Assembly: GCA_963980225.1 (NCBI GenBank)
Contig: CAXBYW010000004.1
Coordinates: 13,007-77,006, forward strand
Direction of reading: 5' to 3'
Source: an uncultured bacterium
GTDB lineage: Bacteria; Patescibacteriota; Microgenomatia; UBA1400; MFAQ01
DNA: 64,000 nt
Below are positions 2,636 to 57,079 of this stretch, piece after piece (the first letter of the stretch is position 1; each line of letters starts with the position of its first letter). The notes beneath the pieces were generated by a model. It searched no databases, had not been told where the DNA came from, and saw only the letters and a program-made list of their open reading frames with translations. A program made the position numbers and the translations under genes.

Positions 2636-4375
2636 TTGGTGGTAGATATTATGAAGAAGATATTGGGGGTGGCACTATTGGTGGGGATGATGCTGGGGAT
2701 GATGGGAGTGGTGAAGGCAGATGGTTGTGAAGGGAAGACGGGAGAGCCCTTATACACTTGTTTGGGGGAGGAGATATCAAGATTGAGTAGAGATTTGCAG
2801 TTAAGTAGAGATGCAACTAGTCCCTTGGAGACAGAAGCGTCTAGATTAGGAACACAAATTAGTTCCATTCAGTATCAGATTAATCAGGCAAAGGTAAAAC
2901 AAACAGAATTGGCTGCAGGGATTAGTGAAAGAGAGTACCTTTTAAGTGAGCAGTATTTAGTGTTGGCTGAGAAAACAAAGGCTTTTTACAAGAGAATTAG
3001 AAGTAGCTCTACTTTAGCGATGTTGATGACGTCTGTGGGGACCGGGTCGTTGAGTAGGGAGTTTAATTACAGGAATGAAGCAAATGAAAGAGACAGGCAG
3101 ATTATTGTTCGGTTGTCTAGTGAGATTGGGCAGTTAGAGAGTGATAAGCAGGATCTGGAAATTCAAAGAGAGAAGTTGTCTGGGCTTCAAGCAAGCTTAG
3201 ACAAGCAGAAGAGTTTTTATGATGGGGAGATAGGTAAGGCTAAGGCGTATCAAACAGACTTGTCGGGTAAGATTGCAGCTCTGTCTGCTAAACAACAAGA
3301 AGTGTTGGGAGAGAAGAGTGGGACCTTCCAGACAACTGTAGGTGATGTGCCTTTAGCGGATGACCCTAATTCCAGACCGGATTACAATCCTGGATTTTCA
3401 CCAGCGTTTGCGGCTTTTTCTTTTGGAGCACCACATTTTAAGGGTATGAGTCAGTATGGGGCGTTTGGTAGAGCAAAGGATGGTCAAAGTTATGAAGATA
3501 TTTTACGAGCATATTATGGAGGAGGAATAGAGATAAGGAGTGTGGACGTAAACACAAAGATAACTGTTGATGGTTATGGGAGCTATTCAATTGATGATTA
3601 TGCGAAACGAATTTATGAAGTGCCGGGTAGTTGGGGGGATGAGGGAGGAATGGCTGCTTTAGAGGCTCAGGCAATTGCGGCTAGAAGTTATGCTTTAGCT
3701 AGGGGTGGTTCGATTTGTGCGACTGAGGCTTGTCAGGTGTTTAAACCTAACCCTAAAGGAGGTAACTGGGAGACGGCGGTAAACAATACGAGTGGTAAGG
3801 TTGTGTACGCTAATGGTTCTCCTCTGTCTACTTGGTATGCTTCAACGAGTGGAGGATACCAAGAGTCCTATACCTCTAATGGTTACAGCACTCCTGGGTT
3901 TTGGGATACTAGTAATGGTAGAGATGGTTGGACAAGTGAAGCTTATGAAAAGAAAGCTGGAAGCCCTTGGTTTTATAAAGGGTGGTATAAGACAAGGTCT
4001 GGGGATAGTTGTGGCAGATCTCATCCTTGGTTAACAGGTGAGGAGATGGCAGATGTTTTAAATGCTTGGGTGGTGGTGGTAAAGAGAGGAGAGAGTGATG
4101 ATAGGGTTTTACCTTTAGGTGGTTGTTGGGGAGGTAATCCATATAGTGTGAGTGAGATGAAGGATAAGGCAAATAGTTCTGGGGAGGGCTATTCAAATGT
4201 TACGGGAGTAGTAAGAGTAGATTACTCTAATAGTGGGTATACACAAACTGTGGTTTTTGGAACAGACAGAGGTGAAGTAAGTATTAATGGTTTGGAGTTT
4301 AAGAAAGCATTTAATTTAAGAGCGCCAGGTAGGATTGCCTTGAAATCTGGGTTATTAAATATAGAGCAAAAGTAA
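2636..4375 (+). CDS. SpoIID/LytB-domain protein with N-terminal signal peptide and coiled-coil region
   Basis: 579 aa. Signal/TM at N-terminus, then a long coiled-coil. SpoIID-like motifs are present: GMSQYGAFG, QAIAARSYAL, ACQVF, STSGGY. Confidence 0.7.
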   Translation: MVVDIMKKILGVALLVGMMLGMMGVVKADGCEGKTGEPLYTCLGEEISRLSRDLQLSRDATSPLETEASRLGTQISSIQYQINQAKVKQTELAAGISEREYLLSEQYLVLAEKTKAFYKRIRSSSTLAMLMTSVGTGSLSREFNYRNEANERDRQIIVRLSSEIGQLESDKQDLEIQREKLSGLQASLDKQKSFYDGEIGKAKAYQTDLSGKIAALSAKQQEVLGEKSGTFQTTVGDVPLADDPNSRPDYNPGFSPAFAAFSFGAPHFKGMSQYGAFGRAKDGQSYEDILRAYYGGGIEIRSVDVNTKITVDGYGSYSIDDYAKRIYEVPGSWGDEGGMAALEAQAIAARSYALARGGSICATEACQVFKPNPKGGNWETAVNNTSGKVVYANGSPLSTWYASTSGGYQESYTSNGYSTPGFWDTSNGRDGWTSEAYEKKAGSPWFYKGWYKTRSGDSCGRSHPWLTGEEMADVLNAWVVVVKRGESDDRVLPLGGCWGGNPYSVSEMKDKANSSGEGYSNVTGVVRVDYSNSGYTQTVVFGTDRGEVSINGLEFKKAFNLRAPGRIALKSGLLNIEQK

Positions 4376-5091: not shown

Positions 5092-5315
5092 TGGAGTTTT
5101 TACCAGGAATAGACATAGGATTGAGTGAGGTAGTAGGGGTGATGGTAAAGACGGTGTTGGTCCTTATCACTTTACTGTCTTTAGTAATTGTTAGGCAGAC
5201 TAGCTTGATGCATAAAGTGGTAAGTGTTCATATTGGTGGAAACATTAAGACAATGGCCTTTGTGTTTTTTGTGATTAGTTTGGTTTTAACTGGTATAGTT
5301 ATATTAGTTAGCTAA
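5091..5315 (+). CDS. small hypothetical membrane protein
   Basis: 74 aa, two predicted TM helices. Start overlaps the upstream stop (ATGA-like coupling). Confidence 0.4.
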   Translation: MEFLPGIDIGLSEVVGVMVKTVLVLITLLSLVIVRQTSLMHKVVSVHIGGNIKTMAFVFFVISLVLTGIVILVS

Positions 5316-5332
5316 CTAATAATCAGTGCAAG

Positions 5333-7189
5333 ATGAGTAGTTTTTTAGGAGTGGATTTTTTCAGGATCGTAAATGAAGGATTGGTAGACGATTGGGCTCA
5401 AGTCTATGCAAAGGTGCCTTTTGAGGAGGAAGAGTTGTCTGAAAAGGGAGCACTGTTTGGAGTTTTAAGAATAAAGGGTGGGGCAAAACTTGTAAGTAAA
5501 GGCTCAGATATCTTTTTATGGTTGGATGAGTATTTTAACAAGGTCCATCAAAAAGGAGATTTACGTGGTTTAGTAGAAGGTCTTTTGAAAGTGAATGATA
5601 AGTTGCAGGCAGCTTGGGCATGGGTGATAGTAGATGAAGAAACAGGAGAAAGAGTGGTAAAGACGGCGGCTTTAAATGGTGGTCGAGTGGTAATTGTTAG
5701 AAAAGGACAGCAAGTGGTACTTTCCGGGAATGATGATAAAGACAAGGTGGTGGTAGGTAGTTTGAGCTTGGGAGACAGATTAGGATTAGGGGTTGGAGGA
5801 ATGGTAGATAAGCTTGCGGGATTGAAGGATAAGGGTGGTTTGGGTGAAGTGTTTGAATCCTTAAATAAACAAATAGAAAAAGAAACAGAAAGAGCTGTGG
5901 CGGGATTGTTGTTGGAGGTTAAGAAAAAAGAACAAGAAAGTGTAGTAGTTAGTCCCACATCAGAGGAGATTGTTCCGAGTTCGCCGGTGAATGATAATTT
6001 AGAGGTGGTAAGTGAGAGTAAAGTAGTGGGTCCGGATGGACTGAAGAAAAGGTTAGTTGGGTATTACTTAAAAAACTTTAGTAAAAAGAAAAAAATAGAG
6101 ATAAGAGAAGAGAAAAAGAAAAACGACAAAGTATTATGGTTGGGAATAGTATTTTTGGTTTTGTTTTTAGTAAGTGTTGTGGGAGGAGTAATTAAAAGTA
6201 GAAGTCAAAATGTGATGGCCAGTTGGCAGAGCGAACTTAGTTCTTGGCAAAAAAGGGAGGAAGAAGCTAAGTCTTTAGTACAAATTAACCCTGCGGGAGC
6301 AAGAAAACTATTGAGTGAGATAAAAGAAGAAGTTTTAGAGGCAGAAAGTGTTTGGGTGGAAACTAAGTACAAGAAAGAGTGGGAGGATTACAAACTTAAG
6401 TTAGATGAGAGTTGGATAGAGGTTTCTGGGGAAAGAAAGGTTGACCCCAAACTGTTCTTGGTGTTGAGTCTGGTAAGGTCTAATTTGGTGGGAAGTAGGC
6501 TGATAAATCATGAAGACGGAATTGGTTTGCTTGACATAGATGAGGGCTTATTAGTAAGGATTGGATTGGAAGACAAAAAAGCGGAAGTGGTTGATAGTGA
6601 TAGTGATAAAAAATGGAAGGCGGTTGGGGGAGATGGTGAGAATGCTGTGTTTTTAAGCGATAGTGGTCTGAGCTTATTGGGTGAAGAGGAGGTGAGGTTT
6701 GATGCTACAGTGGCAAATCCAGTGGAGGTAGAGGTATTTGGAACTGGAATTTATGTGTTGGATGATGGGACTGGTGAGGTGTGGAAGTTTAGCTTATTAG
6801 GTGGAGAGATACAGGACAGGAGAAGATGGCTCCAGCCTGAAGAGGAAATAGGAGTAAGTGAGTTGGTGGACTTAGATATAGATGGGGATATTTGGGTTTT
6901 GGGTAAAAAAGGTGAGATAAGTAGACTGAGAAGAGGTAGTAGGGAGAGATACGCTTTGGAGGGAAAACCAGATAACTTAGTAGGAGATAGATTGGCTGTG
7001 CAGCTTGATGGAGAAGAGATGGCAATTCTTGATGTGTCTAGTTCTAGAATAGTAGTTTTTAATAAGGAGTCGGGGGAGTATTCACACCAGTTGATTTGGA
7101 GTGGTTTTTCTGAAAGCAAAGACATTTTATATACAGATGATGGACGGTTAATGGTGTTGTCTGGAGGTAAGTTGTACTGGGTAGAGTAA
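5333..7189 (+). CDS. hypothetical membrane-anchored protein (N-terminal cytoplasmic domain, one TM, C-terminal repeat-rich possibly beta-propeller-like domain)
   Basis: 618 aa long ORF with a TM segment near residue 270 (LWLGIVFLVLFLVSVVGGVI). C-terminal region has repeated hydrophobic-Asp strands (IYVLDDGTG, IWVLGKKG, MAILDVSS, LMVLSGGKLYWV). Confidence 0.45.
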   Translation: MSSFLGVDFFRIVNEGLVDDWAQVYAKVPFEEEELSEKGALFGVLRIKGGAKLVSKGSDIFLWLDEYFNKVHQKGDLRGLVEGLLKVNDKLQAAWAWVIVDEETGERVVKTAALNGGRVVIVRKGQQVVLSGNDDKDKVVVGSLSLGDRLGLGVGGMVDKLAGLKDKGGLGEVFESLNKQIEKETERAVAGLLLEVKKKEQESVVVSPTSEEIVPSSPVNDNLEVVSESKVVGPDGLKKRLVGYYLKNFSKKKKIEIREEKKKNDKVLWLGIVFLVLFLVSVVGGVIKSRSQNVMASWQSELSSWQKREEEAKSLVQINPAGARKLLSEIKEEVLEAESVWVETKYKKEWEDYKLKLDESWIEVSGERKVDPKLFLVLSLVRSNLVGSRLINHEDGIGLLDIDEGLLVRIGLEDKKAEVVDSDSDKKWKAVGGDGENAVFLSDSGLSLLGEEEVRFDATVANPVEVEVFGTGIYVLDDGTGEVWKFSLLGGEIQDRRRWLQPEEEIGVSELVDLDIDGDIWVLGKKGEISRLRRGSRERYALEGKPDNLVGDRLAVQLDGEEMAILDVSSSRIVVFNKESGEYSHQLIWSGFSESKDILYTDDGRLMVLSGGKLYWVE

Positions 7190-7198
7190 AATAGGGGA

Positions 7199-7636
7199 AT
7201 GAGGTTGGTAAACAGAAAAGCAAAAAGAGATTATGAGATTGTAGAAAGCTTGGAAGCTGGAGTAGTGTTGACTGGTAGTGAAGTGAAAAGTTTGAGGGTG
7301 GGACAAGGTAATTTGTTGGGTTCTAGAGTGATACTTAGAGATGGTGAGGTTTGGTTGAGTGGTTTTTCCATACCAAGGTATAGATTTGATGGTAGGGAGG
7401 ATGAATATGATCCTGATAGGATTAAAAAATTGTTGATAAAACAAGCAGAAAAACGACGTTTGGAGGTAAAATCCAAGAGTGGAGGTTTGACCATGATACC
7501 TCTGTCGGTGTATAATAAGCGAGGATTGATAAAAGTGGAGATAGGTTTGGTAAGAGGAAAGAAAAAATATGAAAAACGAGAGGTCCTTAAGAAAAGGAAA
7601 CAAAAAAGAGACCTGTCCAGAAGATTTAAAACTTAA
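7199..7636 (+). CDS. smpB: SsrA-binding protein SmpB
   Basis: 145 aa matching SmpB throughout (RKAKRDYEI..E.GVVLTGSEVKSLR..G.LLG). tmRNA gene lies immediately downstream. Confidence 0.9.
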   Translation: MRLVNRKAKRDYEIVESLEAGVVLTGSEVKSLRVGQGNLLGSRVILRDGEVWLSGFSIPRYRFDGREDEYDPDRIKKLLIKQAEKRRLEVKSKSGGLTMIPLSVYNKRGLIKVEIGLVRGKKKYEKREVLKKRKQKRDLSRRFKT

Positions 7637-7650
7637 ATAGATAGAAAGAA

Positions 7651-7899
7651 ATGAAAATGAATATATTTTGGGATAAAGCTATGCCTGTTGCAGTATCTGG
7701 TTACTCTTGGGGTGAAGAGATCTGTAAGTTAAAAACTCAGAAGGCATGGAAGGCAAGTCTTAAACCTAAATTAAAGAAAATGGATAAGGGTGAGTTTGAT
7801 CTTTTTTTGGCGGCAGTGGTAATGGAAGCGGCTAAGAAGCAGGTAATGGGAGTAGATTTGACCGAAAAAGTGGAAATGTTTAGAGAACTTAGAAAGTAA
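7651..7899 (+). CDS. small hypothetical protein between smpB and ssrA
   Basis: 82-aa ORF with no recognisable motif. May or may not be expressed. Confidence 0.3.
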   Translation: MKMNIFWDKAMPVAVSGYSWGEEICKLKTQKAWKASLKPKLKKMDKGEFDLFLAAVVMEAAKKQVMGVDLTEKVEMFRELRK

Positions 7900-7905
7900 T
7901 TTTAC

Positions 7906-7934
7906 TTGATTTTTCAGGCTATTTTTGATATATT
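7906..7934 (+). promoter_or_regulatory. sigma70-like promoter for tmRNA (TTGATT - 17 nt - TATATT)
   Basis: -35 TTGATT at 7906-7911, 17-nt spacer, -10 TATATT at 7929-7934, about 10 nt upstream of the tmRNA 5' GGGG. Confidence 0.5.
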
Positions 7935-7944
7935 CTCTAATATT

Positions 7945-8349
7945 GGGGACGAAAGGTTTCGATGGAATAAGTACATTGACAGTGGCAAGCCGAGTCTTAG
8001 GACAAACTCGTTAATACTGACCTAAAAAATAACTGTCAACGAAGAGAAGACAGACAGCGTTATCGCTACAGCTCCAGTTTTTGCTGGTGTTGAAACCGGT
8101 CTCGCTCCCGCTTACCTTTTTGCGTAATCGGGTGTTTCTAGATGGTCTTTCTTTTAGGGATCGCTAGAGGCAGGTACAAACTTTAAGATGCTTTATTTTT
8201 GTTTAATTTAGGCAAAGATAAAAAAGACTTCTAAATTAACTTAAAACTGATTTTGTTTGTGGGTAGGTTTTGAGGAAAATACACAAACTAAGCTTGTAGA
8301 CATTGTTATTTATTTATTGCAGACGTGGGTTCGAATCCCACCGTCTCCA
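7945..8349 (+). ncRNA. ssrA: tmRNA (SsrA)
   Basis: 5' GGGGACG pairs with 3' CGTCTCC-A (tRNA-like acceptor). The 3' end has a T-arm GGTTCGAATCCCACC. An internal ORF-like stretch ends in TAA. Lies directly downstream of smpB. Confidence 0.8.
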
Positions 8350-8378
8350 CAAAGGTAAATGGTAAAATATTTTATGTT

Positions 8379-8464
8379 GGAGGGTTGGCCGAGTGGTTAT
8401 GGCGCTGGTTTTGAAAACCAGTGAGCGCAAGCTCTCACAGGTTCGAATCCTGTACCCTCCGCCA
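8379..8464 (+). tRNA. tRNA-Ser(UGA)
   Basis: Cloverleaf GGAGGGT../..ACCCTCC-G-CCA. Anticodon loop TTTGAAA (anticodon TGA). Long variable arm. T-loop TTCGAAT. Confidence 0.85.
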
Positions 8465-8488
8465 GAGGCTGGTATAATTCGTTGTATT

Positions 8489-8576
8489 GGAGGCGTCGCA
8501 TAGTCTGGTCAATTGCACAAGATTGCTAATCTTGAACCTTCGGGTTACGTGGGTTCGAATCCCACCGCCTCCGCCA
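8489..8576 (+). tRNA. tRNA-Ser(GCU)
   Basis: Acceptor GGAGGCG/CGCCTCC-G-CCA. Anticodon stem CAAGA/TCTTG with loop TTGCTAA (GCT). Long variable arm. Confidence 0.85.
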
Positions 8577-8600
8577 TTTTGCTTGTGCTAAACTTTATCT

Positions 8601-9128
8601 GTGAGTAATAAAGATGCGGTAGCTAGAGAGCCAGTAGATGAAATGGATATTGGAGAAGAGAAGGTGCTTCATACCTGGAAGTCTGTAGAGAGACCGTTTA
8701 AGAAATGGAATAAGGAGTTTTATAGTACGGTGATGGTTTTTGCTGTTTTGGTGAGTATAATTTTCTTTTTCATAGAAGGATTTATGTTGGTATTAGTAGT
8801 CTGGGCGGTGGTGTTTATGGCTTGGGCGATATCTAGGACAGAGCCGGGTATTAGGGAACATAAGATTACAGATAAAGGAATTAGGACAGGAGGAACACTT
8901 TATAGATGGGATACGATGTTGGTTTACTGGTTAGAGGAGAAATGGGACAAGAAACTTTTGAGAGTACTTTTAAGCAAGTTTCCAGGCCAGTTAGTGTTGG
9001 TTTATGATCAGAAAGAAGAAAAAAAGATTAGAGAAATCATGAGTAAGTTTTTGGCTTTAGAGAAACCGGAGGCTACATGGACTGATAGAGTAGTGAAGTG
9101 GTTTGGTGAAAAGGTGCCTTTAGAGTAG
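8601..9128 (+). CDS. hypothetical membrane protein
   Basis: 175-aa ORF with two adjacent TM helices, embedded in the tRNA cluster. Confidence 0.45.
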   Translation: MSNKDAVAREPVDEMDIGEEKVLHTWKSVERPFKKWNKEFYSTVMVFAVLVSIIFFFIEGFMLVLVVWAVVFMAWAISRTEPGIREHKITDKGIRTGGTLYRWDTMLVYWLEEKWDKKLLRVLLSKFPGQLVLVYDQKEEKKIREIMSKFLALEKPEATWTDRVVKWFGEKVPLE

Positions 9129-9151
9129 TTTCAAGGTAAAATATTGGGCAT

Positions 9152-9224
9152 GCGCCCATAGCTTAATGGATAGAGCACTTGATTGCGGATCAAGAGGTTA
9201 CAAGTTCGAGTCTTGTTGGGCGCA
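9152..9224 (+). tRNA. tRNA-Arg(GCG)
   Basis: 73-nt cloverleaf GCGCCCA../..TGGGCGC-A. Anticodon stem CTTGA/TCAAG with loop TTGCGGA (anticodon GCG, G37). CCA not encoded. Confidence 0.7.
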
Positions 9225-9236
9225 CAATAAAGGCAA

Positions 9237-9321
9237 GGAGGGTTGGCCGAGTGGTCTATGGCGTTGGTTTCGAAAACCAATGGGTGTTAAGCCCGCACAG
9301 GTTCGAATCCTGTACCCTCCG
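9237..9321 (+). tRNA. tRNA-Ser(CGA)
   Basis: Acceptor GGAGGGT/ACCCTCC-G. Anticodon loop TTCGAAA (CGA). Long variable arm. Near-duplicate backbone of tRNA-Ser(UGA). Confidence 0.85.
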
Positions 9322-9344
9322 CAGTATTTACTTGCAATCTTGAT

Positions 9345-10397
9345 TTGACACAATCTTCGGGTTTTGTTAGACTAAATATAGGTATGAGATGGGTTTTTGC
9401 AGATGATGATCAAGTAAGTTTTTTTAAAGAAATTAAAGAGAAATCTGGTTTATCTAATGAAGTATTGGGTAGTTTTATTGGTGTGTCTGGTAGGAGTTTT
9501 GGTGACTGGGTTAATAGAAAGACGCTGCCTTCAAAAGAAGGTGTGTTAAGGTTGGGTCAAAAGTTTAAGATAATGGTTCCAAAGATATTGGAAGAAAGAG
9601 AGGAATTTTGGAGTGGAAGAATTCACGGAAGGAAAGCGGCTTTAAAGAGATTGAAGATTTATGGTCCTCCAGGTACACCCGAGGGTAGGAGGAAGGGTGG
9701 TTTGGTTTCCTGGCAAAGAAGACGAGAAAATCCTGATGTTTACAGGAAGCTAGGGTGTATTGTAGGAAATAAATTTATTAAACCAAAAAAGTCAGAAGAC
9801 CTAGCTGAGTTTGTTGGTATTGTTTTGGGGGATGGCTGTTTAACTAAAGATCAGTGTCAGATTTCTCTTAACATGATAGATGATAAAGAATATGTGAAGT
9901 ATGTTGCAAGATTGGTTTCAAAGCTTTTTGGATATGATCCAACAGTGGCTGAATATCCAGGGCAAACTGTTACGAGGATTATTATTACAGGTGTGTATTT
10001 TATAAAAATAATGAAAAGTTTTGGTTTGATAGTGGGAAATAAAACCAAGAATCAGGTTGGTGTCCCGGAATGGATAAAATCTGATAAAAACTTTTTTCGT
10101 GCCTGCATTAGGGGTTTGTTCGATACTGATGGAGGTACCTTTACTCACAAGCATAAAGTAAAGAGATACGATTATTGCCATTTTGGTTTAACTTATACAT
10201 CAGCTTGTAAACCACTGCTGTCTAGTTTTAAGAAATGTTTGGAGGTTGATGATATCAAGACTTATGGAAAAAAAGATTGTCTGTTTGTGTATAGAGTTGG
10301 TGATATTAATAGTTTTTTTAATATATATCAGACGAAGAATTTAAAACATGTTTATAGATTTAAAGACCATCTAAGTCGATCGACTAGGCTTAATTGA
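9345..10397 (+). CDS. double-motif LAGLIDADG homing endonuclease-like protein
   Basis: Two canonical LAGLIDADG motifs are present: FVGIVLGDGCLTK and IRGLFDTDGGTF, spaced about 100 aa apart. Free-standing between tRNA genes. The annotated start overlaps the tRNA 3' end, so the true start is probably the internal Met (MRWVF). Confidence 0.7.
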   Translation: MTQSSGFVRLNIGMRWVFADDDQVSFFKEIKEKSGLSNEVLGSFIGVSGRSFGDWVNRKTLPSKEGVLRLGQKFKIMVPKILEEREEFWSGRIHGRKAALKRLKIYGPPGTPEGRRKGGLVSWQRRRENPDVYRKLGCIVGNKFIKPKKSEDLAEFVGIVLGDGCLTKDQCQISLNMIDDKEYVKYVARLVSKLFGYDPTVAEYPGQTVTRIIITGVYFIKIMKSFGLIVGNKTKNQVGVPEWIKSDKNFFRACIRGLFDTDGGTFTHKHKVKRYDYCHFGLTYTSACKPLLSSFKKCLEVDDIKTYGKKDCLFVYRVGDINSFFNIYQTKNLKHVYRFKDHLSRSTRLN

Positions 10398-10415
10398 GGT
10401 ATAATTTGTTATGTT

Positions 10416-10499
10416 GGAGGGATGCAGGGAATGGTTAACCGGAACGCTTGGAAAGCGTTTGCCCTAACGGGCTTGGGGGTTCGAGTCCCCCTCCCTCCG
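10416..10499 (+). tRNA. tRNA-Ser(GGA)
   Basis: Acceptor GGAGGGA/TCCCTCC-G. Anticodon stem AACGC/GCGTT with loop TTGGAAA (GGA). Long variable arm. T-loop TTCGAGT. Confidence 0.8.
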
Positions 10500-10540
10500 C
10501 AGAGTAAGTGTTTTTTAGTATTTAGGATAGAATAGGGATT

Positions 10541-12310
10541 ATGGATCAGGTTGAAGAAATTAAGAGAAAAGTAAATATTGTTTCGTTGATTGGTGAGTAT
10601 GTTACTTTAAAGAATACGGGTAGAAACCATAAAGGACTGTGTCCGTTTCATGGAGAGAAAAGCCCGTCGTTTATGGTAAATGAGGAGTTACAGATTTATA
10701 AATGTTTTGGGTGTGGAGTTGGAGGTGATGTAATCAAGTTTTTGATGGAGATTGAGGGTTTAGATTTTATAGAAGCGTTGGAAAAACTGGCTAAAAGAGC
10801 TGGGGTTAAGTTAGAGAAAAAGGGGAGAGATAATCAGAGTAGTGAAAAGAAACGAGTATTGGAGATGCATTCTTTGGCTGGTGAGTACTATCATTACTTG
10901 CTTATGGAGCATAAGGTTGGAGAGGTGGCAAGAAAGTATTTGTTGGGTAGGGGTTTGAACAAGAAAATTTGGGAGAGTTTTCGTTTAGGTTTTTCTTTAT
11001 CTACATGGGATGGGTTGAGTAAGTTTTTGATTGAAAAAAAGGGTTTTAAGGAGAATGAACTAATCAGTGCAGGACTTTCGATAAAGGGAAGTAAGGGAGG
11101 AGTGTATGACAGGTTTAGAGGTAGGATAATGTTTCCTTTACTTGATAGTGGTGAGAAGGTGGTTGGTTTTTCAGGTAGGGTAATTCCTGAACTTGCTAGG
11201 GAAAATGAACCTAAATATATAAACTCACCGGAGACGCTTGTGTACCATAAGTCACAGATGCTTTTTGGTTTGACTCAAGCAAGGCAAGCGATAAGAAAAA
11301 AGGATCAGGTGGTGGTAGTGGAAGGAGAGTTGGACATGATTAGTTCCTTTATGGCAGGAGTGACTGAGACGGTGGCTATTAAAGGGTCTGCTTTAACAGA
11401 GGAAATGGTAGAGAAACTAGCTAGGTTGTGTAACTTGGTTATCTTGGCTTTGGATGCTGATGATGCAGGCGAGGAAGCGTTGAAGAAGTCTATTGAGACA
11501 CTGGAAAAAAGAGGTTTGGAGGTAAAAGTGGTGTATTGGTCTGACGGTAAGGATCCAGATGAACTAGCTAGAAAAAACCCTTTGTCGTGGAGAAAACTGG
11601 TTGACAAGCCGGTGTCGGTATATGAATGGATAATGAAAAAGGCTTTTGATAAATGGGGGGTGGAGACGCCGGAAGACATAAAAAAAATAGTAAAAATGAC
11701 TGTGCCTTACTTGTCCAAGATAGAAAATAGGGTGGTGGCGGAAGTTTGGGTGAAGAGGTTGGCGGAAAAACTAGGTGTAGGTAAAGAAAGAGTTTGGGAA
11801 GAGGTTGAAAAAAGTGGAAAAAGAAGTGAGTTAAGAACTGAGTCAAGTACTAAGGAGGTAGAGAAAATAGAGGAGACGGACAACAAGACACATAAACTTA
11901 CAGAAAGACTTTTAACTGTTCTGTTTCAACTTGAGGGAGAAGAAAAAGGGTTGGTGAAAAAGATACTTTCAGGGATTAGTTTGGATGGTGCTGCCGGTAA
12001 ACTCTTAATAAGGTGGGTTAAGACTAAAGATGGAAAGATTGCTAGTTGGATCAAGAAGTTGCCGGATGAATTAAGAGTGGTGGCAGAAAGGTGTTTTATT
12101 AATGAAAAAGAAGAAGGTTTAGGGGAAAGAGAGGTTGTTAGGTTAGCTGTGGACTTGGCTAGAAATAAATTACAGGAAGAAAGAGTAGTTTTGATCGGTA
12201 AGTTGGAAATGGTGGAAAAGACTGATGATGAGGGTAAAATAGAGGAAATTAGTAGGAGATTGGTGTGGCTAGACAAGAAAGAAAGATTAATAGTTGGGTT
12301 TTTGATCTAG
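10541..12310 (+). CDS. dnaG: DNA primase
   Basis: N-terminal CHC2 zinc finger ([18 protein letters not shown]). Toprim region present ([24 protein letters not shown]). Confidence 0.9.
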
Positions 12311-12356
12311 TAGCTTTGAATTTTTTACCGTTTGTGGTAAGCTAGGGAGATCAGTT

Positions 12357-13508
12357 TTGTTTGAAAAATCAAGATATATGGCTACAAAAAAGACCAAGAA
12401 ACAAACCAAGAAACAGGCAGGGACAAAGACGTTGCCTGTTGAGATGATTATTAAAACTCTTTTAAAAAAAGGAAAAGAGTATGGTTTTGTAACCCAAGAA
12501 GAGATTTTTGAGTATTTCCCTGACGCAGAAAAGAGAGTTGATGATTTGGATAAATTATACAATGAGCTGTTTTCGGCAGAGATTGATGTGTTTGAGAGTG
12601 TTTTGATGGGGGAAGAGAGTGTGGTAGTAAATGCTGATTTAGAGAAGGAGCTAGAAGAAGTTTCTAAAATGGATAGGAAAACTATTAATGACCCGGTAAG
12701 GATGTATTTAAGAGAGATTGGAAGAATTCCTCTTTTGAAAAGAGAGGAAGAGATTTCTTTAGCTCAACAAGTTGATAGAGATGATCCTAAAGCTAAGGCT
12801 AAGTTGACCCAAAGTAACTTAAGGTTGGTTGTTTCTATTGCTAAGAAGTATATGGGAAGAGGTATGAGCTTTTTAGACTTAATCCAAGAAGGAAATAAGG
12901 GTTTGATTAGAGCGGTAGAAAAATATGACTGGACAAAGGGATACAAATTTTCCACTTATGCAACCTGGTGGATTAGACAGGCAATAACTAGGGCAATTGC
13001 TGATCAGGCAAGAACGATTAGAATTCCAGTTCATATGGTAGAGACGATTAATAAGTTAATTCGTACTCAGAGAAAACTAATGCAAGATCTGGGTAGGGAA
13101 CCAACTGATGAAGAAGTGGGTGACGAGTTAGAGATTACACCAGAGAGAGTTAGGGAGATTTTGAAGATTTCACAGAAGACAACTTCTTTGGAGACTCCAA
13201 TTGGAGATGAGGAAGATTCGCTTTTAGGAGACTTTATTCCAGATGACAGACAAGCTTCACCATATGAAGTAACTAGTAAACAGTTAATGCATGAGAACTT
13301 AGAGTCGGCTCTTGATGCTTTAACAGAAAGAGAAAGTAAGGTACTAAAGATGCGATTTGGTTTGGCTGGGAGTAAGCCACTTACACTAGAAGAGGTAGGA
13401 AGACATTTTGGAGTAACCAGGGAAAGAATAAGACAGATCGAGAGTAAGGCGATAAGGAAGCTAAGACATCCAAGTAGAAAACGAAGACTGCAGGACTTTT
13501 TAGATTAG
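12357..13508 (+). CDS. rpoD: RNA polymerase primary sigma factor (sigma-70 family)
   Basis: Regions 2-4 are conserved ([28 protein letters not shown]; region 4 [22 protein letters not shown]). Follows dnaG as in the macromolecular-synthesis operon. Confidence 0.9.
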
Positions 13509-13522
13509 TATAGAATTAAAGT

Positions 13523-13843
13523 ATGATAGGAAAACTTTTAGTTAGTACGATCGCCTTTTATGTAACAGCTTACTTGGTCCCTGGAGTAACGATTGCAGGC
13601 TGGGCCCCTTTATTGGTGGTGTCTGTTGTTTGGGGGATACTAGCTATGTTGATTAGACCTTTACTGATACTTTTGACTTTACCGGTTAATATTATGACTT
13701 TGGGACTATTTACCTTGGTTATAAACGCGGCTTTGGTACTGATGACAGCTAGGTTAGTGGAAGGATTTAGTGTAGAGAGTTTTGGCGCAGCCATGATTGC
13801 AGCCTTAGTGCTGGCAATTATCAATATGATTTTTGGGAGATGA
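13523..13843 (+). CDS. phage-holin-4_2-like (PF04020 family) small membrane protein
   Basis: 106 aa with 3-4 TM helices and the family pattern YLVPGVTIAGW..LIRPLLILLTLPVNIMTLGLFTLVINAALV..LVEGFSVESFG. Confidence 0.6.
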   Translation: MIGKLLVSTIAFYVTAYLVPGVTIAGWAPLLVVSVVWGILAMLIRPLLILLTLPVNIMTLGLFTLVINAALVLMTARLVEGFSVESFGAAMIAALVLAIINMIFGR

Positions 13844-14157
13844 AAAGGTTTTCAGGATTTTTGGAGTTTGTCCGTGAACAGGGTGTGGTGGGTTTGGCAG
13901 TTGGTTTTATTTTAGGAGGGTCGGTGTCCAAGGTGGTGTCTTCTTTGGTAAAGGATGTTATTAACCCTATCTTGGGAATATTTTTAGGAGCAACCGGTAA
14001 CTTGAGCTCGTACAGCTTGAGGATTGGCTCATCGGAAATTCTGTGGGGTAGTTTCTTATCGGTATTGATTGATTTTGTGTTAATTGCTTTTGTGGTGTAT
14101 TTTGGGGTGAAAAAACTAGGATTAGATAAGTTAGACAAGAAGAAAGAGAAGAAGTAG
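13840..14157 (+). CDS. mscL: large-conductance mechanosensitive channel
   Basis: 105 aa. MscL signature: FREFVREQGVVGLAVGFILGGSVSKVVSSLVKDVINPILG, a second TM helix, and a KKEKK C-terminal tail. Confidence 0.85.
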   Translation: MKRFSGFLEFVREQGVVGLAVGFILGGSVSKVVSSLVKDVINPILGIFLGATGNLSSYSLRIGSSEILWGSFLSVLIDFVLIAFVVYFGVKKLGLDKLDKKKEKK

Positions 14158-14252: not shown

Positions 14253-14541
14253 TCCCCGGTAGCTCAGTTGGTAGAGCGCGCGACTGTCGATTGGCAGCTT
14301 CCATTGGAAACTTTGGAATGATAATTGGGTGAACTGCGGGAAGCCTAAGTGGTTAATAACTATATGGGAATCCGCAGCCAAGCCCACTTTTAGTGGGAAG
14401 GTTCAGAGACTAGGTGAGTACACCCTAGAGCGCCCGACACCTAAATTCGAAAGGATATGGTGATGAGATAGTCCACGCCATTTGGAAACAAGTGGATTAA
14501 GTGTAATCGCTAGGTCACTGGTTCGAGTCCAGTCCGGGGAG
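14253..14541 (+). tRNA. tRNA-Asn(GUU) interrupted by a group I intron in the anticodon loop (exons 14253-14287 and 14504-14541)
   Basis: The exons reconstitute a canonical tRNA-Asn: TCCCCGG-TA-GCTCAGTTGGTAGAGC-G-CGCGA-CTGT^TAA-TCGCT-AGGTC-ACTGGTTCGAGTCCAGT-CCGGGGA-G. It closely parallels E. coli tRNA-Asn, including U1-A72 and the CUGUUAA loop. Confidence 0.8.
14288..14503 (+). ncRNA. group I self-splicing intron (216 nt, ORF-less) inserted between anticodon positions 35 and 36 of tRNA-Asn
   Basis: The 5' exon ends in U and the intron ends in G (omega-G). The intron's GCAG pairs with exon CUGU to form P1 with a U-G wobble. The intron 5' CGAUUG pairs perfectly with the 3' exon UAAUCG to form P10. 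The core resembles known tRNA group I introns (CGCAGCCAAG, AGAGACUAG as in the Azoarcus/Anabaena P7 region). Confidence 0.75.
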
Positions 14542-14609
14542 CTCGATTTTTTACTCAAATGATTTTATGGCCCAACGTGGACAATTCAACCTTTTGGTAA
14601 ACTTAAGCT

Positions 14610-57002: not shown

Positions 57003-57079
57003 GGGCCGGTAGCTCAGTTGGTCAGAGCGCGAAGCTTATACCTTCGTGGTCGCTGGTTCGAGTCCAGCTCGGCCCACCA
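57003..57079 (+). tRNA. tRNA-Ile(UAU)
   Basis: GGGCCGG-TA-GCTC..GAGC-G-CGAAG-CTTATAC-CTTCG-TGGTC-GCTGGTTCGAGTCCAGC-TCGGCCC-A-CCA. Anticodon loop CUUAUAC gives anticodon UAU. Confidence 0.8.

Follow-up and report, generated by a model that had tools for sequence, protein, structure and literature searches.

A family of free-standing HTH-LAGLIDADG endonuclease genes placed directly before tRNA-Ser genes in CPR bacteria, with signs of homing into the cognate tRNA gene

The window analysed here, a 64,000-nucleotide stretch of contig CAXBYW010000004.1 from an uncultured bacterium of the Patescibacteriota order UBA1400, carries between two tRNA-Ser genes a gene for a LAGLIDADG protein with an N-terminal helix-turn-helix (HTH). 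It belongs to a large and apparently undescribed family of the ultra-small bacteria known as the candidate phyla radiation (CPR). The reading that we favour, with a probability of roughly two in three, is that the gene encodes a free-standing homing endonuclease whose target is the cognate tRNA-Ser gene, and that this tRNA gene is co-converted. The cassette consists of the gene's own promoter, the endonuclease gene, a short spacer and the tRNA-Ser gene. Free-standing homing endonucleases are already known; what is new here is the family-wide placement at the 5' edge of tRNA-Ser genes together with anticodon-specific lineages, in a protein that fuses an XRE-type HTH to the nuclease.

When 80 species-level genome loci encoding relatives were scanned for tRNAs (loci are cited below by their L numbers), a tRNA-Ser gene on the same strand was found to follow the endonuclease gene in 72 of the 72 bacterial loci that have downstream sequence. 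This count combines 69 loci scored by script with three pseudogene loci (L041, L046 and L063) added by hand; three further contigs end at the endonuclease gene. Across the 72 loci the position of the stop codon ranges from 57 nt inside the tRNA-Ser gene to about 42 nt upstream of its 5' end; the median position is 14 nt inside, so that the open reading frame (ORF) frequently ends within the tRNA-Ser gene. Intact ORFs end within +27 nt of the tRNA-Ser 5' end, and the pseudogene fragments of L046 and L063 lie at +42 and +25, respectively. The genes upstream of the endonuclease differ from locus to locus. The bacterial loci contain 94 tRNA-Ser genes, of which 69 are linked by script (72-73 with the pseudogenes) and about 21-25 are unlinked. 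Archaeal relatives have no tRNA-Ser downstream: none occurs in the vicinity in L076, L078 and L079, and the one of L077, a tRNA-Ser(GCT), is found on the upstream side of the gene at a distance of about 160 nt. A preliminary description of the locus, drawn from the window alone and supported in part by our results, had not seen this invariant position. At the end of the L081 contig an Illumina adapter (AGATCGGAAGAGCACACGT, positions 3473-3491) directly follows the endonuclease stop codon, so that the downstream tRNA is missing there for technical reasons.

The protein clusters follow the tRNA. Among the 69 script-scored loci, the linked anticodons are GCT (21), GGA (20), CGA (19) and TGA (9), and clusters of the protein over its nuclease core, obtained by the unweighted pair group method with arithmetic mean (UPGMA) on identities, coincide with the linked-tRNA anticodon (GGA, CGA, GCT or TGA) and not with host taxonomy. 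Each anticodon cluster spans several CPR classes, and Kaiserbacteria and Nomurabacteria each occur in both the GGA and the CGA group. Moreover, two genomes carry two subfamily members, each standing before its own isoacceptor (CGA and GGA in L041, GCT and GGA in L081). The positions specific to subfamilies, constant within each and different from one to another, lie mostly on the beta-strands of domain 2 (251, 255, 268, 294 and 302), an enrichment with an odds ratio of 4.8 (Fisher p 0.037). In the LAGLIDADG fold these strands form the DNA-contacting surface. The enrichment is suggestive, but only suggestive, of target-linked lineages. As a separate observation, ARAGORN calls a tRNA-Ser(ACT) beside the endonuclease-linked tRNA-Ser(GCT) in L065 (3901-3991) and L073 (5680-5767); this anticodon is unusual and may reflect a mis-call or a variant.

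DnaG, which is encoded just downstream, was used to find close relatives, and five sister lineages with DnaG identities of 79-88% were compared. The comparison revealed presence/absence polymorphism. The gene lies between tRNA-Ser(CGA) and tRNA-Ser(GGA) in the window and is also present in L153 (DnaG 81%; gene 73.6% identical), where the order is gene, tRNA-Ser(GGA), DnaG. It is absent from L086 (DnaG 88%), which has 33 bp between tRNA-Ser(CGA) and tRNA-Ser(GGA), from L087 (83%), in which MazE-PIN is followed after 18 bp by tRNA-Ser(GGA), and from L088/L089 (81%), which retain no coding remnant in the 222-336 nt upstream of tRNA-Ser(GGA). The family hidden Markov model found no match in L086-L089 even at E 10. 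L081 carries an extra, GCT-type copy, and the corresponding site is empty in the window; L082 and L001 (DnaG 58%) are fully syntenic with the window and carry the gene. In addition, decayed copies were found, all still beside a tRNA-Ser: the copy in L046 is interrupted by an in-frame TAA, those in L041 and L063 by frameshifts and that in L080 by many stops. Some contigs of the window's own species break inside the gene, at differing points and with coverage of 3-5x, and these were not used as evidence of strain polymorphism.

The tRNA next to the gene has been exchanged along with it. The tRNA-Ser(GGA) genes of the window and L086 are 68% identical and the four neighbouring tRNAs 98-100%, while the window's allele, here called type A, is 93% identical to that of the distant, gene-bearing L082. 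A blastn comparison of the window with L086 aligns positions 5204-9322 and 10444-13980 only; between them, the 1121 bp at 9323..10443, comprising the promoter, the endonuclease gene and the 5' part of the tRNA, replace 63 bp of L086, and the allele differences extend through the remainder of the tRNA beyond 10443. Type A occurs together with the gene in the window, L082, L001, L153 and four other metagenome contigs, and type B in L086 and L088/L089, all without the gene. When metagenomes were scanned for the 19 nt that open the type A tRNA, most of the sequences recovered were unrelated; five were true type A tRNAs, the gene being present in five of the five. Independently, at tRNA-Ser(GCT), the allele linked to the GCT-type paralogue of L081 matches the one in L087, where the gene is missing from this site, and is unlike the allele common to the window, L086 and L082. 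Such a pattern is expected if homing with co-conversion was followed by occasional loss of the endonuclease, leaving the allele behind, an order and direction of events that we infer. L081 and L087, in a single comparison, put the insertion's left edge about 4 nt upstream of where the tRNA begins in the empty allele. Taken with the absence of the gene at the same site in three sister species and the existence of pseudogenes, the allele swap supports the earlier suggestion that a mobile homing endonuclease gene has invaded the tRNA array.

Two further ideas about the tRNAs themselves were tried and given up. The tRNA-Ser(GGA) of the window (10416..10500, type A, called by ARAGORN) had seemed strongly deviant on account of its absence from the whole-window Rfam scan, which proved to be a filter effect; in a local search it scores 44.4 bits, compared with 58-63 bits for the other three tRNA-Ser genes, and is a valid tRNA. 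Nor are linked tRNAs generally aberrant, as in 15 loci they did not score consistently lower than unlinked ones.

Toxin-antitoxin pairs have been inserted in the same tRNA array of sister lineages, namely MazE-PIN in L081 and L087 and RHH-PIN in L087 (L081 1691-2370; L087 1351-2139 and 3683-4362), and the pairs of L087 stand directly before two tRNA-Ser genes that have endonuclease-type alleles but no endonuclease gene. These gains make the region a hot spot for accessory genes, and the endonuclease gene might accordingly be an accessory or addiction-type gene that accumulates there and moves with the tRNA by ordinary recombination, its nuclease being irrelevant to its spread. We regard this as quite improbable. 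It leaves unexplained why all 72 loci, in many CPR classes and behind unrelated upstream genes, have the gene within tens of nucleotides of a tRNA-Ser 5' end, and why protein subfamilies follow the anticodon; furthermore, no PADLOC defence family matched the protein.

Sequence and predicted structure identify the protein as a LAGLIDADG enzyme. The ORF at 9345..10397 (+ strand, as are all window features given below) encodes 350 aa if read from its TTG, including FVGIVLGDGCL and CIRGLFDTDGG, the two motifs from which a monomeric LAGLIDADG enzyme had initially been proposed. It matches Pfam LAGLIDADG_3 (PF14528) at 32.9 bits (E 8e-8, cut-off 22.5 bits) and PHROG 4645 'endonuclease' at 2e-9. The NCBIfam matches are only to intein regions of archaeal proteins, and weak Pfam HTH_31 and Xre-like matches cover residues 26-70 of the 350-aa ORF. 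Pfam and NCBIfam thus matched LAGLIDADG and HTH families only, with no GIY-YIG domain, and the Pfam WhiA models did not match. In an alignment of 37 homologues that are 36-73% identical to the window protein, the architecture is constant, with an N-terminal HTH, a basic segment and two LAGLIDADG motifs. The G-D-G of the first motif and the D-T-D-G of the second are invariant, including both catalytic aspartates, as are a conserved lysine and glutamine. The motifs are not chance matches, given that a word-index search recovered 308 homologues and that the family comprises at least 764 clusters at 50% identity (E<=1e-30).

Four parts can be recognised in the protein, which is numbered from its Met start (see below). 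An XRE-type HTH occupies approximately aa 1-70 (9384..9593); the family profile matches XRE/LexA-like HTH structures in the PDB (2kpj at E 5e-5, 3op9 at 1e-4), and AlphaFold2 predicts helices at 7-21, 25-31, 36-43 and 51-60. It is followed by a basic helical linker at aa 82-122 (9627..9749), with the consensus YGPPGTxEGRRKGGxxSQxxRRENPExYRxLGC and invariant G, R, S, P and Y columns, which is modelled as helices 82-93, 99-115 and 117-122 with a lower predicted local distance difference test (pLDDT) score of 58-85. A Pfam search of this linker gave no match, and it is possibly an extra DNA contact. LAGLIDADG domain 1 spans aa 138-212 (9795..10019; GIVLGDG, catalytic Asp150 at 9831-9833) and domain 2 spans aa 235-315 (10086..10328; RGLFDTDGG, catalytic Asp249 at 10128-10130). 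The AlphaFold2 model has a pLDDT of 90.3 and shows two alpha-beta-beta-alpha-beta-beta-alpha domains, with Asp150 and Asp249 at the ends of the motif helices. The best Foldseek match in the PDB is I-Tsp061I, an enzyme from an archaeal intron (E 2.7e-9, TM-score 0.75 on the target), ahead of inteins, I-AniI, the bI3 maturase (2ab5), the I-OnuI group and WhiA (8dy9_I); there were 106 matches at E<=1e-3, and the best 50 of the 106 are all LAGLIDADG proteins. A sequence search of the PDB gave only HTH and weak intein matches, the LAGLIDADG core being seen through the fold search. Because both aspartates are invariant and the model places them at the ends of the motif helices, the active site looks intact, unlike that of domesticated LAGLIDADG relatives such as WhiA and pure maturases, which we take to have lost the catalytic Asp. 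On the favoured reading, the protein is a monomeric, two-motif LAGLIDADG homing endonuclease, encoded by an intact gene and fused to a DNA-binding HTH.

The gene sits in an array with the order tmRNA, tRNA-Ser(TGA), tRNA-Ser(GCT), ORF175, tRNA-Arg(GCG), tRNA-Ser(CGA), endonuclease gene, tRNA-Ser(GGA), dnaG and rpoD. As had been described, it lies between tRNA-Ser(CGA) at 9237-9322 and tRNA-Ser(GGA), both called by ARAGORN, all on the same strand, and it is encoded in neither an intron nor an intein, since no intron model overlaps 9323-10415 and both flanking tRNAs are complete. Its start had been taken to abut a tRNA 3' end, which does not hold. The true start is almost certainly the ATG at 9384 (MRWVF...), giving a product of 337 aa, because the corresponding Met opens all homologues, because gene callers give 337 aa on other assemblies of the same species and because the TTG at 9345 begins the -35 hexamer of a promoter. 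With this promoter and this start, the gene does not abut tRNA-Ser(CGA) but starts 62 nt after it, the promoter lying between the two. The gene thus occupies 9384..10397, with its TGA stop at 10395-10397, as judged from Pfam, the homologue alignment and the start evidence.

The promoter (9345..9373) is of the sigma-70 type and consists of TTGACA, a 17-nt spacer and TAGACT, with TG preceding the -10 element and 10 of 12 positions matching. A promoter scan listed 4 promoter-like sites against a shuffle mean of 3.6, so that the count alone is not significant; the TTGACA and spacer core TTCGGGTTTT is nonetheless kept in L081, L082 and L001 despite proteins that are only 57-73% identical. Downstream, the spacer at 10398..10415 contains a -10-like box (GG TATAAT, 10400-10405) 10 nt 5' of the tRNA. 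This box is also present 5' of tRNA-Ser(GGA) in genomes without the endonuclease gene, reading GGTATAAT in the window, L082, L001 and L087 (an empty site), GGTAGAAT in L086 and GGTAAAAT in L088 and L089. No convincing -35 box for tRNA-Ser(GGA) was seen by eye in the 3' end of the endonuclease gene, and the promoter scan lists none there.

The window also holds a group I intron, which the preliminary description had correctly presented as the only one in the window and as lacking an ORF. It spans 14278-14495 (218 nt) and splits a tRNA-Asn(GUU) gene at approximately 14260-14545, which ARAGORN misses, after anticodon position 35; this matches what is described for Patescibacteria (PMC13011429). 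The protein had been suggested to serve this intron in trans as a maturase or homing enzyme. In favour of this, the window contains both an ORF-less intron and a free-standing LAGLIDADG gene 4 kb upstream of it, and some LAGLIDADG proteins are maturases, among them the bI3 maturase recovered in the fold search. The comparisons do not support the idea, and we consider it highly improbable. The intron is polymorphic among the sisters: L087 has the intron (Rfam 94.9 bits) without the endonuclease gene, so the gene is not needed for the intron, and L086 has neither, its tRNA lying at 8023-8096. Moreover, the 72 loci are tied to tRNA-Ser and none to tRNA-Asn, and the tRNA introns of Patescibacteria are reported to be self-splicing, their few encoded enzymes being of the HNH type (PMC13011429).

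In the homing reading, chromosomes without the cassette would be recognised and cut by the enzyme at the gene of the cognate tRNA-Ser isoacceptor, or right at the 5' edge of this gene. Repair templated by a chromosome that has the cassette would then copy the endonuclease gene into the cut site, and the tRNA gene would be converted as well, to the linked allele, which the enzyme would not cut. The XRE-type HTH and the basic linker may provide extra DNA contacts, or may repress the gene's own promoter.

Several points weigh against this reading. Cleavage of DNA and its target site, like the exact cut position, the role of the HTH and the ability of the linked allele to resist the enzyme, are steps that we infer from sequences and models. 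Within the window's species (DnaG 100% identical), all contigs of sufficient length have the gene. The linkage between gene and allele is imperfect, in that the type A allele of L087 stands alone, with no gene, and that the gene of L002, which is 50% identical, accompanies a B-like allele. No full-length family member was found on viral contigs, which gave only distant, core-limited matches of 25-34% identity, and no phage vector was found. The protein clusters derive from UPGMA and not from a tested phylogeny, and the enrichment on beta-strands is weak. The endonucleases of the window and of the syntenic L082 are 57% identical, compared with 58% for DnaG, 61% for SmpB and 53% for ORF175, and this host-like divergence looks like long vertical descent rather than recent invasion. 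Within the window's clade the divergence of the endonuclease thus matches that of host genes, whereas the UPGMA clusters follow the anticodon and mix CPR classes. Finally, the ratio of nonsynonymous to synonymous substitution rates (dN/dS) is 0.15 against L081 (range 0.15-0.19; rough values, as dS is near saturation), which indicates purifying selection, about twofold more relaxed than in neighbouring genes (0.06-0.085).

Purifying selection, host-like divergence at a syntenic locus and fixation in the window's species would all suit a domesticated LAGLIDADG protein, another possibility raised at the outset, that is, a regulator or nuclease in the service of the host (compare WhiA and HO) that controls or maintains the downstream tRNA-Ser and is kept for the benefit of the cell. 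The XRE-type HTH is typical of regulators, the promoter region is conserved, the ORF ends that overlap the tRNA in many loci suggest transcriptional coupling, and WhiA is among the fold matches. We nevertheless think domestication unlikely. The gene is dispensable, being missing from three sister species whose tRNA-Ser(GGA) genes retain their own -10 box; both catalytic aspartates are invariant; most loci have one copy before one tRNA-Ser while other tRNA-Ser genes stay unlinked; pseudogenised copies exist; and the WhiA models of Pfam are unmatched. The selection, and the divergence at one locus, agree with the earlier suggestion; the dispensability of the gene in the sister species speaks against it.

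A more far-reaching proposal, which we put forward tentatively and hold to be rather doubtful, is that the family represents an ancient, isoacceptor-specific partnership between endonuclease and tRNA gene, in which four subfamilies have become welded to the four tRNA-Ser isoacceptors across the CPR under purifying selection. Such a partnership could be sustained by a cassette that works as a natural gene drive, spreading its own tRNA allele through populations. The alternative is that cells may have grown dependent on the cassette: the ORF overlaps the tRNA in many loci, so that transcription of the tRNA probably passes through the endonuclease gene or begins within it.

Comparison with known systems helps to place the family. 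It shares with monomeric LAGLIDADG enzymes (I-Tsp061I, I-AniI, the I-OnuI group and inteins such as PI-PfuI) the two motif helices ending in a catalytic Asp and the same domains. Unlike these enzymes, to which it is only 9-21% identical over the aligned core, the window protein adds an XRE-type HTH and a basic linker, is free-standing and is fixed at the 5' edge of tRNA-Ser. WhiA likewise combines a double LAGLIDADG scaffold with an HTH. WhiA, however, is encoded by a conserved core gene, has lost the catalytic acidic residues and bears an HTH of another type at its C-terminus, whereas in the window protein the HTH is N-terminal and XRE-type, the aspartates are invariant and the gene is sporadic. 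For the HTH, a possible model is I-TevI, a homing endonuclease of the GIY-YIG family in which the DNA-binding domain, which contains an HTH, doubles as a repressor of the enzyme's own promoter; by analogy, the HTH may act here as a DNA anchor, an autorepressor or both, and the endonuclease promoter is here unusually conserved. I-TevI differs in belonging to another nuclease family and in bearing its HTH at the opposite end of the protein, and autorepression is proposed here by analogy only.

The closest analogue in mode of action is SegB, a free-standing GIY-YIG homing endonuclease in the tRNA cluster of phage T4, which recognises tRNA-gene DNA through a T-psi-C stem-loop motif and which, along with the tRNA genes flanking it, is preferentially inherited at the expense of the recipient's markers (PMC2330249). 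The allele swaps at the tRNA-Ser genes of the window family are of the same character. SegB differs in its nuclease family, in residing in a phage and not in a cellular chromosome, in not being tied to one tRNA species and in having no isoacceptor-specific subfamilies. Within the same host group, the LAGLIDADG enzymes so far described, which are of the same superfamily, are encoded in group I introns or insertion sequences of rRNA genes (16S and 23S) of CPR bacteria (PMC11270868), and these, too, target highly conserved RNA genes; that report makes no mention of tRNA or of HTH fusions.

The family's hosts include Microgenomates, Parcubacteria, Peregrinibacteria and other CPR groups. A genome scan with an 18-sequence subset of the alignment, seeded by the pattern CxRGLFDTD only, confirmed at least 152 species, which is an undercount. 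In the sources, the majority of members are unnamed, and others are called 'hypothetical protein' or 'XRE-family / helix-turn-helix transcriptional regulator'. The family was not found in the literature searched, Pfam, NCBIfam or PADLOC; a full-text literature search, of incomplete coverage and hence amounting to absence of evidence only, gave no description of a LAGLIDADG gene tied to tRNA-Ser. Short members without the N-terminal HTH also occur (L018, L028, L047, L057, L062, L068, L071, L036, L043, L049, L067 and L070), in which the profile match begins at 79-84, 97 or approximately 128-129, although the short form of L067 starts 3 nt from the contig end and its truncation may be an artefact. 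These forms still stand directly 5' of tRNA-Ser, so the placement does not require the HTH.

A second, HTH-less double-motif LAGLIDADG family, with the motifs YVLGFLYADGC and LRGYFDGDGC, was seen in L019 (10733-11509), L038 (4214-4942) and L022 (4054-3452, - strand). In two Parcubacteria loci it lies directly 5' of tRNA-Cys(GCA), 9 nt before it in one and overlapping it by 18 nt in the other, and the third locus has it between tRNA-Cys and tRNA-Leu(UAA). From this, LAGLIDADG genes flanking tRNAs would seem to be a broader, general strategy in CPR bacteria.

Elsewhere in the material, a Patescibacteria homologue of DnaG (P0234, 975 aa) is about 390 aa longer than others and contains a LAGLIDADG_3 domain, presumably an intein in the primase. 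At 57003-57079 the window encodes a tRNA with anticodon TAT, identified as tRNA-Ile(UAU) by ARAGORN (Rfam tRNA 69.6 bits) and also present in L066 and L073; such a tRNA is an unusual bacterial way of reading AUA. The GC skew is strongly positive in every 1-kb window of positions 1-64000 (0.11 to 0.63), the cumulative skew climbs without a turn, and within 7-13 kb the gene-like long ORFs are all on the + strand. The same strand disparity has been reported in the Microgenomates order UBA1400 (Collierbacteria, Beckwithbacteria) (PMC7143001).

If the homing reading is true, it would explain why some tRNA-Ser alleles of sister CPR species diverge far beyond the rest of the genome, and essential single-copy tRNA genes would join the targets of homing in cellular genomes. 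The family would also constitute a natural series of related meganucleases, the target of each being evident from the tRNA gene beside it, and such a series would be useful for studying the evolution of LAGLIDADG specificity and for enzyme engineering.

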